A stretch of DNA of 64,000 bases from Eledone cirrhosa (taxonomy: Eukaryota). Positions 10,990 to 37,524 of this stretch are shown here, piece by piece. Both the position numbers and the translations under genes were made by a program. The notes beneath the pieces were generated by a model. That model did not search any database, was not told the DNA's origin, and worked only from the letters and a program-made list of their open reading frames with translations. Every line of letters starts with the position of its first letter. Position 1 is the stretch's first letter. The DNA is taken from positions 54,250,001 through 54,314,000 of the forward strand of contig OZ024746.1 of the NCBI GenBank assembly GCA_964016885.1, in the 5' to 3' direction.

Positions 10990-11184
10990 AACGAAGGAAA
11001 TGTTGTAAGGAACCAGGTGGACCATAACGCACCAAAGTACTCAATACTTAGGGTAGTAGGAACGAGTAGGACCCCGACGGCTGAGCTCAAGTCGTTTCGA
11101 CGGCTAATTCTGGACTAAACAATATAGTCCAGAATTAGCCGTCGAAGCGGCTTGAGCTCAGCCGCCGGAGTCCTGCTCGTTCCT
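10990..11184 (-). mobile_element. Family A PLE-derived mini element with internal fold-back
   Basis: Starts TA-ACGAAGGAAATGTTGTAAGGAACC; hairpin centred on CTGGACT..AGTCCAG; ends TTCCT-ATATA; both ends in (TA)n. Confidence 0.8.
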
Positions 11185-11521
11185 ATATATATATATATAT
11201 ATATATGTACGTGTGTGTATGTATGTGTGTGTTGTATATATATATATATGTGTGTGTGTGTGTGTGCGTGTATGTATGTGTGTGTTGTATATATATATAT
11301 ATATACAATTTATATCACTGCATATTTATATCACTGCATATTTATATCACTGCATATTTATATCACTGCACAATATATATATATATATATATTACACTGT
11401 GTTTCTCTCTAGTTTTTTTCCCTGTACATATATTTTATTTCAAATTTTATCTGTGATTTGCTCTCGTTTTCTTCAGCAAATACCATATAATAATAATAAT
11501 AACAATAATAATAATAATAAT

Positions 11522-12292
11522 AGACATGGAACTGGTTGAGAAGAGGAGACCTCAAAAAGGCTACAGAAGGAATGCTAATGGCTGCGCAGGAGCAGGCCCT
11601 CAAAACGAAGTGGTTGAAACACCATATTTACAAGGAGAAGGCTAGCCCACTGTGCAGGATGTGGAGTGAGGAGACTGTGGCTCACATTGTATCCGAGTGT
11701 AAACACCTAGCCCAGACCCACTATAAGGGCTGGAGACATGATGTGATGGGCAGGGTGATCCACTGGCACCTGTGCAAAGTAAACAATTTACCACATTCTG
11801 AGAAATGGTATGAGCATAGACCAGAGGCGGTGATGGAGAACGATCAGGTGAAGGTGCTGTGGGATTTTAGGATACAGACGGACAAGAAACTGGAACACAA
11901 TAGACCTGACCTGGTGGTTGTGGACAAAGAAAAAAGAGCGTGTCTGATTGTGGATGTGGCCTGCCCATTCGACACGAGAGTGCAAGAGAAGGAGAGGGAG
12001 AAAATTAACCGATACCAGGACCTAAAGTGGGAGGTGAAAAGGATTTGGAACTGCCATGAAGTCAAAGTGATCCCGATTGTCATAGGCGCACTGGGGACTA
12101 TCTCCAAAAGTTTCCAGGGATGGTTAAAGAAAATCGGCCCCTTCACGCTTTTTGGAACGCTTCAAAAGGTATGCTTGCTGGGAACAGCAAGAACCCTCCG
12201 ATACGTCCTGAATATCTGAGGCTGGAGGTAGTGGCTTGATATTCAATCCAACGGACTTTCCAGTTAACCAACATCAATGACTGAGATTCAAG
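11522..12292 (+). mobile_element. 5'-truncated R4/Dong-clade non-LTR retrotransposon (RLE domain)
   Basis: ORF 11536-12219 with a degenerate CCHC region (CRMW..ETVAHIVSEC), RHD, RPDLVVVD..DVACP..EK..RYQDL restriction-like endonuclease motifs; (TAA)n on both sides; 3' UTR matches the copy ending near 54907. Confidence 0.9.
11536..12219 (+). CDS. C-terminal RLE endonuclease domain of R4/Dong-like element (truncated, frame open)
   Basis: PD-(D/E)xK motif RPDLVVVDKEKRACLIVDVACP and IPIVIGALG terminal motif. Confidence 0.8.
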   Translation: MRRGDLKKATEGMLMAAQEQALKTKWLKHHIYKEKASPLCRMWSEETVAHIVSECKHLAQTHYKGWRHDVMGRVIHWHLCKVNNLPHSEKWYEHRPEAVMENDQVKVLWDFRIQTDKKLEHNRPDLVVVDKEKRACLIVDVACPFDTRVQEKEREKINRYQDLKWEVKRIWNCHEVKVIPIVIGALGTISKSFQGWLKKIGPFTLFGTLQKVCLLGTARTLRYVLNI

Positions 12293-12345
12293 GAATAATA
12301 ATAATAATAATAATAATAATAATAATAATAATAATAATAATAATA

Positions 12346-12532
12346 ATTGTTTCTACTTTAGGCACAAGGCCAGCAATTACCCAGTGCATTACTGGTACTT
12401 TATTTTATCGACTCCGTAAGGATGAAAGGCAAAGTCAACCTCGTCGGGATTTGAACTCAGATCGTAAAGGGACGTAACTATGCTGGAAAGCATGGTGTCT
12501 GACCCTCTACCAATACTGCCAATCCACCGCCC
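12346..12532 (-). mobile_element. Meta-SINE copy, tail-to-tail with the Dong element
   Basis: Reverse complement of the 506 family; tail merges into the (TAA)n tract. Confidence 0.85.
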
Positions 12533-13042
12533 TAATAATAATAATGACAATGTAAAATAGATGGATAGCGTAAAGGAGAAAGGAAAAAAATTCATGGAGG
12601 TTTAAAAATAAAGTTGAAATGTTTGAATTTATTGGTTGACAAAATGAAGGAGCGAATTAATATAAGGCAAAAATCTAATATGTTTTGGCGAAGTACAAAT
12701 TGACTAAAACAACACCGATCAGAAAATGTTTTAAAACTTTGTTAGAAGTTACACCTATTTCTGAAGAATCCACACAATTTTGGTCAGGTCTATGTGGGAT
12801 GGCAAACACGCGAGATCGACAAATGAAGCCGAGCATTTTATTAAATAAACCGAAACATAGATGGAAAAGAATTTCAAGAGCAAGATCAGAAAATGATCAA
12901 CAGGAAATCTACTGGAATGGATGAGATCCAAGTATTCTGTCAGAAAAGATTTGAAATTATTCATTCAAGGCTAAGGAAGTACTATATGATTGTGTAGTAC
13001 AAGTTGTTCCATGTTCGATGGTGCAATGTAATACAACTTTAT

Positions 13043-34187: not shown

Positions 34188-34590
34188 GTGATTTCCCCTG
34201 AATGAAACAGTTCTAGTCTTGTAGGAGCCATTTCTATATTAAATTTTTTGTTTACACTCTACTAATATATTGCGCATCTTACTGTTCGTTAGCCCTGAAT
34301 GAACCCGAGACTCATATACATATATAAATACACACACACACACACACACACACACACACACACACACACACACACACACACACACATATATATATATATA
34401 TATATATATATATATATATATATATACTTCGTTTGGGAGAGCTTTGACAATATATAAACAACCTTCCGGTTATTGAGCCAAACAACCACAAATTTATAAT
34501 AAATTGAAATGAAAACTAACAGGCGCGTGTGTTTTTATTGGCAACATGACCCTCCCAAAGTATAACACTTATATATATATATATGTATAT

Positions 34591-36200
34591 ATTAGGGCGT
34601 TCCATTTTGCAAATCGCCAATCCTCTCCTGTCAATTGCTCCCGTATTTGTGTCGATAAAAGAACAAAGTGTGTCGAATTATTGGTCAATCGAAAATGTTT
34701 GATGTTTGCACACTATCACATCTTTGTATTCATAACAATTTCTTGGGACCTGGCCTGCGGTATATTGTCCTTTGTTCACTTTACAATAATATTAGTGTTA
34801 AAGATAGAAACACTTTTTTATGAATCCAATTTATTACCGGAAACGACTTTTTCTGGATCTCTTGATTTACGTGGTGTAAGCTGAAGTTATTCTTTGACCA
34901 GAACTATTTTGATCACATAGACGACCTTTGCTATATAACACAGGCAAGGAAAACTGGGGAGATGGCCAACCACCAAGATAGAGACGAGAGCTTTGTGAAC
35001 TCGACATAGTCTTTTGGGGATAGTCGCCCGAAAGCAGGACAGTCAGTAGATATTTAACCATCTCCTCCCTCTTTTGCTTGTAAAAATCTTCCATGGGCTC
35101 ATCATCGTCCAGGATAATTTGATAATCAAACTTATCGATGGAGTCCCAACGTCTCTGGAACTTAGTGAACTTTGGGATACTGAGAATAGACGATGGGAAA
35201 AAGATCTCAAAGACTTTCTTCAAAACCAGTTCAAGAAAGTGAGGTCAATAAGCCAGTCACAAGAGGGATTTTTTCAGAATTGTTTTAATTTTCATATTAT
35301 CTTCTTGGTGCATATTAGTGATACTGGTGGTAGTGTCGACAAACATACCATTTATTCTCTCATCTATCTTGAGTAGTTGAATTTCTTTCAAAACGACTTC
35401 AACAATTTATTGTCCGGTATCATCTCTTGCAATCGGAACCACTAATAGCCCCTTCTTTCCTTTCCCTGTAATTAAAACTGCAATCTGATCTTCAAGTGTG
35501 CTGGATTGGGAAGCTGATGGTAATAATTCTCCATCACAGTGGATGACTAGCCAGAATTTGTCTTTAGATGGGAAAGCGGATTACTCAATTTCCCGAGCCA
35601 TCTTCTCATGATGAATGGTTCCTTCTCAATAAACTGTTAAGGAAGGGGGTGGGGATCGAGAGTTCAGACACATGATGACCAAGAATCTTCGCAATTGCGA
35701 TGTAAGAATTACTTGTTTGTCATAACGATAGTTTCTCTCTTTCCCACGTGGACAAGTGAGACAAGAGTGGCGTCGAGAGTCGGTTTTATTCACTATTTTT
35801 GAAGGGATGCTAACTTGAAAATTTAATCATCATCATCATTAATAACTGGGCGGGATTACAAACTTTCAAAACCTATTTTCTCGACTATCTTCTTGTCTTC
35901 ATCTAGCTTTCTTATTTGATATCCTGAATCTTTTTTTCCTTCTTCTGATTGGCTCTCACATATTCTGCATCAACACCAGCTATGAATAAATACATACGAT
36001 CGTATCGTTGTGTCTCAAAAAAAGCTTTATCTACAGATGGGAGATCCTCTCGTTCGAGTACCTCTTGGCTTGAAATGTCACAAATTTCCTCTCGATCACC
36101 TTTCCAAATCTCAAGCGAAGTGTGCAAGTGTATCACTACGTAATTTTCCAGCTTTTATGTGAAATTCAGTCAGAGCGCAAATGACATGAGGTGATTCTAA
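34591..36200 (-). mobile_element. Degraded hAT (hATm-like) DNA transposon
   Basis: ICDISSQEVL..DKAFFETQR..GVD, DGELL, FVDTTTSITN, HFLELVLKKVF..KFQRRWDSIDK remnants; TIR-like TTAGGGCGTTCC at 34592. Confidence 0.65.
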
Positions 36201-36575
36201 CAAACACGTTTCCTTATAAATATGAAACACCTACTCTCTCTCTCTCTCTCTCTCTCTCTCTCTCTCTCTCTCTCTCTCTCTCTCTCTCTCTCTCTCTCTC
36301 TCTCTCCCTACCTCTCTCTCTCTCTCTCTCTCTCTCTCTCTCTCTATATATATATATATATATATAGGTAGGTAAGCGATCATTAAGTAGGTGAATGAGG
36401 GTTGGGTCAGAGTTGGTGGCCGACTAAGAAACCTGTGTTATATAGAAAGCCAACGGTGTATCGCTTTATATATATATATATATATATGAGATAGAACACT
36501 GGAAGGTATTATCCGTAGTGGTAGAGCACTCATTCCATGGGACGAGTTTGGTAGAAGTAGTAACTCAAAAGTTAT

Positions 36576-36645
36576 TTCACGATACCGAGAACAATTGTTT
36601 CACCTTATCCGCATAAGGTGAAACAATTGTTCTCGGTATCGTGAA
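36576..36645. repeat. Perfect 33-bp-arm hairpin containing the 3' half of a hammerhead
   Basis: TTCACGATACCGAGAACAATTGTTTCACCTTAT-ccgc-ATAAGGTGAAACAATTGTTCTCGGTATCGTGAA. Confidence 0.8.
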
Positions 36646-37323
36646 CTAAATGTTGTGTTACTACTTCTCTCTCTCTCTCTCTCTCTCTCTCTCTCTCTCT
36701 CTCTCTCTCTCTCTCTCTCTCTATATATATATATATATATATATATATATATATATATATATATATATAGAAGTAGATACATATATATATATGTATATAT
36801 GTATGTATATATATATGTATGTATATATATACAATATGGACTGAGTAGGCTTAAACCCAACGGCTTTTTAAAACTTCGTCCTATTTTTTCTCGGTTACTT
36901 ACTTACATGTGACATTTCCTATGTTTCCTACTTCTATCGGTATGTTTTCTTCCTTTTTTCCCCTCCATTATTCTAATTATTTTCTTTCTTTCTTCTTTTC
37001 GAAATCGCTTCTTCCCTCATGGATTTTTTATAGATTATAGGGCGCGCTACGGATAGATGTATTTTCTATAATGCGCTGAAACATCCGAGACCCGTATTGC
37101 AAAACAGATGAAATGAAAATGTCCATCTACTGTTTGTGTACCTTACTTTCTAACTATGTATGTATATATATATATATATATATATATATATATATATATA
37201 CATACATATATATATATATATATATATATATATATATATATATATATATATATACATACATATATATATATATATATATATATATATATATATATATATA
37301 CATATATATATATATATATATAT

Positions 37324-37524
37324 AACGAAGGGGTAAGGAACCAGGTGGATCATAACGCACCAGAGTACTCGATATTTTCCGTATTAGAGTGGGTAATAGG
37401 AAAAGAGTCAAAACGCCGACGACAGAGCTCAAGCCGTTTCGACAGCTATTTATGAATTAAATTAGTCCAGAAATAGCTGTCGAAATGGCTTGAGCTTTGC
37501 CGTCGGAGTTCTGACTCTTTTCCT
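37324..37524 (-). mobile_element. Family A mini element with fold-back
   Basis: Same termini and hairpin apex as the 10990 and 15620 copies; shorter relics at 22350, 23412, 38038, 38469 and 49990. Confidence 0.8.

Follow-up and report, generated by a model that had tools for sequence, protein, structure and literature searches.

Penelope-like elements (PLEs) of the Hydra clade, which is defined by the DKT and CxCX5C motifs, were described by Craig et al. 2021 (PMC8557442), where the origin of the tail and of the inverted ends of PLEs is named as an open question; it has since been partly answered in vitro for one element (here and below, statements about cited papers hold for the parts of each that were covered). 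Here we analyse a window of 64,000 nucleotides (nt) from Eledone cirrhosa (GCA_964016885.1, contig OZ024746.1, positions 54,250,001 to 54,314,000 of the forward strand), about 33% GC and with abundant (TA)n, which carries a family of short hairpin repeats that we call family A. A preliminary description had reported four of them, at window positions 10990, 15620, 32736 and 37324, all of which proved real, and had explained them by a cDNA that primes itself at a programmed hairpin. By its sequence, family A is the pseudo-long terminal repeat (pLTR) of a non-autonomous Hydra-clade PLE derivative rather than an autonomous member of the clade, and what had been noticed is largely a known Penelope hallmark coupled to a partly wrong mechanism.

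With the Hydra-clade PLEs of PMC8557442, family A shares several Hydra-type traits: homology in the N-terminus, insertion into (TA)n, and a pLTR with partial tandem, an inverted 5' copy and a tail at one end only. In some Hydra consensus sequences of the supplement to that paper, the stem-loop motif described below is visible by eye. Family A differs from these elements in that no intact open reading frame (ORF) was found, in retaining half a hammerhead and in consisting mostly of pLTR-only hairpins; its tail is 78 nt long, whereas PLEs in general are given 30–40 nt (PMC8557442). Of five short motifs of family A looked for in the covered part of the supplement, four were absent and one, an 8-mer, occurred in unrelated contexts only. 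Identity with Hydra-1_Obim was rejected by eye, and family A is not described in the covered parts of PMC4209133, PMC13282606 and PMC5737381.

In vitro, the Poseidon element PAc (Frangieh et al. 2024, PMC11167929) acts from two internal RNA sites, which bound its tail, to cut both strands and extend them, and the RNA it requires lies 3' of the two start sites. Family A would resemble PAc in the two starts bounding the tail, the use of both strands and the AT-rich target. PAc belongs to another clade, however, and in the covered text one AC-rich stem-loop is named and no duplicated motif; its starts are reported as non-homologous to the cut DNA, in contrast to the TA(T) microhomology at both ends of family A. 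Head-to-head inverted pLTRs without a tail also occur in Adineta and Drosophila Penelope (PMC3846280, PMC2377424), where arm lengths vary and self-priming has been proposed, whereas family A combines a strong apex preference with many non-nested arms, that is, arms holding sequence absent from their partner. The non-LTR retrozymes (bioRxiv 10.64898/2026.07.22.740005) likewise derive from PLEs, are non-autonomous and carry tandem units a few hundred bases long, but family A has no complete type I hammerhead and most of its copies are hairpin monomers.

The assignment to the Hydra clade comes from a 63-codon remnant (Table 1), which matches a profile of 27 Hydra-type proteins over all 63 residues (probability 98.5, E 3e-15) and reads RGR at the RWK position. 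It matches 101 proteins, including one of 713 residues with DKT and CxCX5C and with RWR at the RWK position. The single ORF with reverse transcriptase (RT), DKT, CxCX5C linker and C-terminal GIY-YIG is not found in family A, which keeps the 63 codons only; these motifs are present in a relative, P0045. A word-index protein search with the remnant gave no match, and Pfam holds no name for it or for P0045. Canonical hammerheads were sought at seven family A regions, with no CTGANGA on either strand and only the 3' half present, within the core. In an Rfam search of the window, the 150 matches listed, of 437, all fell below the gathering score, nearly all of them to microRNA models and mostly on microsatellites. 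Family A patterns had no match in viral or metagenome contigs, Hydra proteins used as query returned no viral loci, and 78 matches of a family A 17-mer in prokaryote genomes, at about chance level, were discarded.

A duplicated stem-loop motif and the ends of Hydra-clade elements

A search of public contigs with a protein profile, from which the best 80 of 509 matches and 14 of 15 were taken, yielded 92 Hydra loci. Between the hammerhead and the start codon of these elements lies a bulged stem-loop, GCTC…GAGCAC, with 128 matches on the sense strand of the 92 loci against 6 on the opposite strand and at least one match in 68 of them. Strict matches in the 35 pLTRs with a hammerhead upstream of the ORF numbered two in 26 cases, one in 7 and none in 2. 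When a 2-nt 3' bulge is assumed, the next three pairs are Watson–Crick in 97/98, 62/92 and 41/58 distinct motifs, compared with 51.6, 27.0 and 17.0 for the same pairs in shuffles; all four pair types are seen at the second and third variable pairs, and other bulge sizes fail. Element ends in TA-rich flanks, counted up to 100 nt from a motif, lie 0–6 nt before it in 20 of 24 cases, with the others at -1, 11, 62 and 83. The spacing between the two motifs is 55–83 nt (n = 37).

Family A follows the same arrangement, and its 78-nt tail equals the spacing of its motif 1 and motif 2. In motif 1 an A–T pair replaces the basal G–C, and a second copy of this motif lies at 32372–32397; the 137-nt monomers are without motif 2. 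Taken as a whole, a 235-nt region has no better a fold than its shuffles (z -1.19), though both motifs are part of the lowest-energy structure.

The layout recurs beyond family A. In a second window family (hairpin 21361–21695) the stop lies 5 nt before its motif; in another family, represented by locus L159, the plan of tailed arm, apex and tail-less arm is repeated, and L166 stops at the same site. The second window family is itself of Hydra type, with a 264-nt palindrome, the motif at 21630 in its tail and a hammerhead-like core, and at 23668–23695 (-) a Hydra motif stands alone, with (TA)n after it. At four loci (L137, L145, L159 and L166) the pLTR 5' boundary falls 9–15 nt before the hammerhead core, possibly a preferred RNA 5' end. 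Loci L157–L170 are animal Hydra retrotransposons found in several prokaryote genome bins, most likely through host contamination.

Neither the duplicated motif nor the end rule was found described in the covered main text of PMC8557442, in Rfam or in the literature at abstract level, a scope that leaves most subscription papers and Repbase notes outside; six Hydra loci gave no Rfam match at gathering score. A clade-wide cis motif that predicts both ends appears new, while the tail-less inverted pLTR, (TA)n targeting and self-priming have already been published. With a conserved motif that predicts both ends to within a few bases, the question of the tail and the inverted ends becomes directly testable, and the end rule helps to locate where Hydra elements embedded in (TA)n begin and end. 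We also suggest a Penelope origin, as by-products, for many of the short hairpin repeats of such genomes, which automated pipelines might misclassify as miniature inverted-repeat transposable elements (MITEs) or short interspersed nuclear elements.

Family A copies in the window and in reads

The family A hairpin joins a 137-nt arm, made of the 78-nt tail and a 59-nt core, head to head with an arm of core only. A profile scan of the window returned 17 core and 12 tail matches. The stems of the four reported hairpins lie at 11058–11184, 15700–15822, 32817–32933 and 37398–37524, each with the tail on the left, outside the stem. The hairpin at 32736 is the inner part of a longer partial tandem that the preliminary description overlooked, as it did three copies (21037, 21189 and 38040) in which the left arm breaks off within the tail. 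The two pLTRs of the tandem differ at 1 of 137 nt, and the internal junction of its 412-nt unit lies within 1 nt of the apex. The copies at 21189 and 21037 are probably an old local duplication and hence not independent. Elsewhere, a core fragment at 5058–5083 (-) sits within another inverted repeat, with a GAAAC motif before it, and the repeats at 37324, 37548 and 38040 are chained through common (TA)n runs.

The fixed stop claimed for the inverted arm held throughout: TTCCT is followed by (TA)n in seven window copies (11184, 15822, 32933, 37524, 21173, 23450 and 38099), the stop at 37524 reading TTCCT and then G, and the same stop recurs in reads, as given below. An eighth match of the stop scan (9243) was without family A sequence and was dropped. 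The common apex stood only as a strong preference. The copies at 10990 and 15620 alone read nearly as had been quoted; the left apex at 37324 reads TATGAATT, the right apex at 32736 reads AG-CCAG, the loops at 10990, 15620, 32736 and 37324 measure 9, 5, 0 and 5 nt, and two arms (21113 and 21265) extend 24 nt beyond the apex. Interpretations of the apex as a long hammerhead stem II, a ribozyme cleavage point or a splice site were each without sequence support. A target-site duplication, if any, is masked by the (TA)n flanks.

All four mirrored variant pairs quoted earlier are present as written. The expectation that arms pair by locus or subfamily is borne out in the total, the own-locus pairing having the lowest sum of differences among 24 pairings (19; next 25), but not for every arm, as the left arm at 10990 is equally close to the right arm at 32736 and to its own partner (5 and 5). 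Left and right arms keep 2–8 differences per locus. The four hairpins look like four subfamilies, and locus and subfamily are not separable in this pairing.

For a survey beyond the window, reference 32326–32737 was compared with two raw restriction site-associated DNA read sets and one contig set under the same species label, and with one contig set from a second organism. Depth was about 12,000–13,000 across the 137-nt unit and 100–400 outside it. A read-end pile at 32456 (7135 and 7284 reads) was disregarded as the probable result of restriction cutting at AATT; read depth is therefore no measure of copy number. Loose ends entering (TA)n at 32403, the position of the tail-less stop, occurred in 3412 and 2982 reads of the two sets, and 994 and 839 reads continued past the apex with a weak consensus resembling the spacer 21089–21112, their agreement beyond the apex being low (0.45–0.47). 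The tandem joint of 32737 to 32326, which defines the 412-nt unit, was seen in 22 and 48 reads and in 3 contigs.

The counts of joints given here are of those listed (15/18). Ten of the 15 are strand switches with one side at 32453–32462 and the other over 32366–32425. In six of these ten apex-type joints the tailed arm extends no further than 32403, and therefore no core was present there as a template for the inverted arm; joints from 32409 were left out of this non-nested count because a variable segment begins there. Eight different left break points occur among the ten joints, each from few starts.

Origin of the hairpins

We consider it probable, if by no great measure, that each hairpin was made by two reverse-transcription starts, one per stem-loop, with nicks in the two opposite strands of the (TA)n target as primers. 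The observations behind this reading are the Hydra origin, the two motifs, their covariation, the distance from end to motif, the equality of tail and motif spacing, and the non-nested arms, which are present in three window copies (21037, 21189 and 38040), in the six read joints above and in four other Hydra loci (L162, L130, L157 and L159), where the inverted arm starts elsewhere in the element than the direct arm and the junction holds no palindrome. The stop of the second window family before its motif, the near coincidence of the 412-nt unit's junction with the apex and the two-site, two-strand activity of PAc also agree with it. A Hydra protein supplied in trans, presumably acting as a dimer, would bind the RNA at each motif; the two (TA)n strands would be nicked, and synthesis would start a few bases 5' of each motif through TA(T) microhomology, giving the tailed arm from motif 2 and the tail-less arm from motif 1. 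Both cDNAs would run to the RNA 5' end and then be joined head to head by end-joining. Two motif-set starts would account for the fixed stop, the tail and the non-nested arms, and end-joining for the variable loops. The least certain step is that the preferred apex at AGTCC may mark the RNA 5' end, that is, the transcription start. The 137-nt monomers, having no motif 2, are predicted to be dead ends, with motif 2 carried by the masters.

L1 twin priming similarly joins, head to head, two target-primed cDNAs made off opposite strands. There the second start is set by chance homology, whereas in family A it would depend on a conserved RNA motif.

The self-priming put forward earlier would have one cDNA reach the apex, prime itself and copy back until stopped or cut at TTCCT, perhaps by an endonuclease reading motif 1 in the DNA. 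The nested arms of the four complete hairpins and their pairing by locus agree with it, as does the apex at 37324, which is exactly what fold-back at CTAAATTAG would give, this being the sole copy that fits a natural mini-hairpin. Palindromic junctions of rotifer PLEs were read in this way (Arkhipova 2013, PMC3846280), and PMC8557442 ascribes the tail to endonuclease resolution. As a general route, however, fold-back fails on the non-nested arms, since it cannot supply sequence absent from the other arm; the loops vary, and the constant distance of the tailed end before motif 2, a motif outside the inserted DNA, is left unexplained. We regard it as quite unlikely. Also unlikely, if a shade less so, is that each master acquired its hairpin a single time and passed it on intact through a transcript starting in upstream (TA)n, with apex and stop inherited within each subfamily. 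Such copying fits the four hairpins, each with the loop of its own subfamily, as well as repeated rebuilding does, and it fits the left break and spacer common to 21037 and 21189; it is at odds with the eight left break points, each from few starts, and with the poor agreement of loose ends past the apex, and the same stop would still have to arise anew in each subfamily. Rebuilding at every insertion, as first claimed, is thus sustained in the weaker form of several rebuildings with the same stop.

Very improbable, finally, is that family A is a DNA transposon of the MITE kind, or that its palindromes were homogenised once inserted, whether through gene conversion or through template switching in replication. 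Inverted repeats at TA-rich targets and arms that match within a locus would suit it, but the 78-nt tail lies outside the repeat, so that inverted repeats do not occupy both termini; a Hydra ORF remnant and a partial tandem are present, the arms retain their 2–8 differences, and ORF-bearing Hydra loci have the same layout. The asymmetry and the ORF remnant already largely rule out the MITE reading. On this point the preliminary description was right, as it was in deriving the hairpins by a stereotyped process from a reverse-transcribed element with TA(T) microhomology to the target.

Several points weigh against the two-start reading. The motif pattern fixed the basal stem in advance, G–U exceeds A–C only weakly (15 vs 6), and neither the 24 ends nor the 98 motifs are independent draws, since their sequences are related, and this kinship inflates the margins; an earlier tally gave 17/41 ends, differing by 17 microsatellite-only rows and a changed filter. 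The left arm at 38040 begins off-site, inside the tail, and later deletions could mimic non-nested arms. Among the joints listed none is an exact apex-to-apex joint, and complete hairpins are thus uncountable genome-wide; short-read libraries may lose long stems, biasing toward non-nested joints, and 32462 is also the similarity edge of the reference, which inflates the apparent fixity of the apex. The pLTR 5' boundaries of other Hydra loci are spread, clustering only at -9 to -15 from the hammerhead core, and the sequence at +28 to +33 from AGTCC bears no resemblance to the Penelope downstream promoter element in the covered part of PMC2377424. PAc, moreover, is of another clade with no shown copy of the motif.

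Held more tentatively, and just short of an even judgement, is the generalisation that the duplicated, covarying stem-loop serves as a two-position ruler. Each copy would place one RT slightly upstream, the tail would be the spacing between copies and the inverted pLTR a programmed form of twin priming, and initiation in the 5' pLTR would flood the genome with dead-end hairpins such as family A.

Coordinates and neighbouring repeats

Table 1. Family A features in the window, by position and strand
Feature	Coordinates	Strand	Details
Hydra-clade PLE N-terminus remnant	32456..32644	-	63 codons; ends where remnant meets pLTR
Hammerhead-like fold, 3' half	32417..32446	-	GAAAC, 6-bp stem III, GTC
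Motif 1	32784..32809	-	ACTC/GAGT basal stem, 2-nt bulge; 5 nt 3' of tail-less stop
Motif 2	32708..32731	-	GCTC/GAGC; 3 nt 3' of tailed end, 78 nt from motif 1
Hairpin copy	10990..11184	-	Tail 10990-11057 with short deletion, core 11058-11116, 9-nt loop, tail-less inverted arm 11126-11184
Hairpin copy	15620..15822	-	Tail 15620-15699, core 15700-15758, 5-nt loop, inverted arm 15764-15822
Partial-tandem insertion	32325..32933	-	609 nt; 3' pLTR 32325-32462, 274-nt middle, 5' pLTR 32737-32875, inverted arm 32876-32933
Hairpin copy, older	37324..37524	-	8 arm differences; core 37398-37458, inverted arm 37464-37524; apex fits natural mini-palindrome
Non-nested copy	21037..21173	-	52-nt tailed arm ending inside tail, 24 nt of upstream element sequence, full tail-less arm 21113-21173
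Non-nested copy	21189..21287	-	Left break as in 21037 copy, similar spacer
Non-nested copy	38040..38099	-	About 16 nt of tail joined to 46-nt tail-less arm
Single tailed arm	5369..5502	+	No inverted partner
Lone tail-less piece	23412..23450	+	Ends TTCCT then (TA)n
Similar tail-less piece	49990-50016		
Tail-only piece	22345..22430	-	
Tail-only piece	38468-38510	+	

A PLE ORF at 42276–43931 (+) was rejected as the partner of family A, not being of Hydra type (E 0.95); this 551-residue frame with RT and GIY-YIG is a 5'-truncated PLE of another clade and adjoins a long (TA)n palindrome at 41443–42174. Fragments of Hydra ORFs lie at 63475–63998 (+) and 16804–17034 (-).

Further hairpins stand beside microsatellites at 37548–38009, 5629–5848, 20718–20901, 36553–36668, 1244–1599 and 15380–15515; several have a one-sided tail or hammerhead cores and probably represent other PLE families whose tail motif differs. 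Hammerhead cores that look complete and have no relation to family A occur at 7026 and 52253 (+) and at 50971 (-). Fragments of retrotransposons of the long interspersed nuclear element type were found at 11524–12219 (+), at 54875–57510 (-), with an RT at 56141–56908, and at 48971–50052 (+), where a zinc-knuckle frame (49588–50052) ends in a family A piece.

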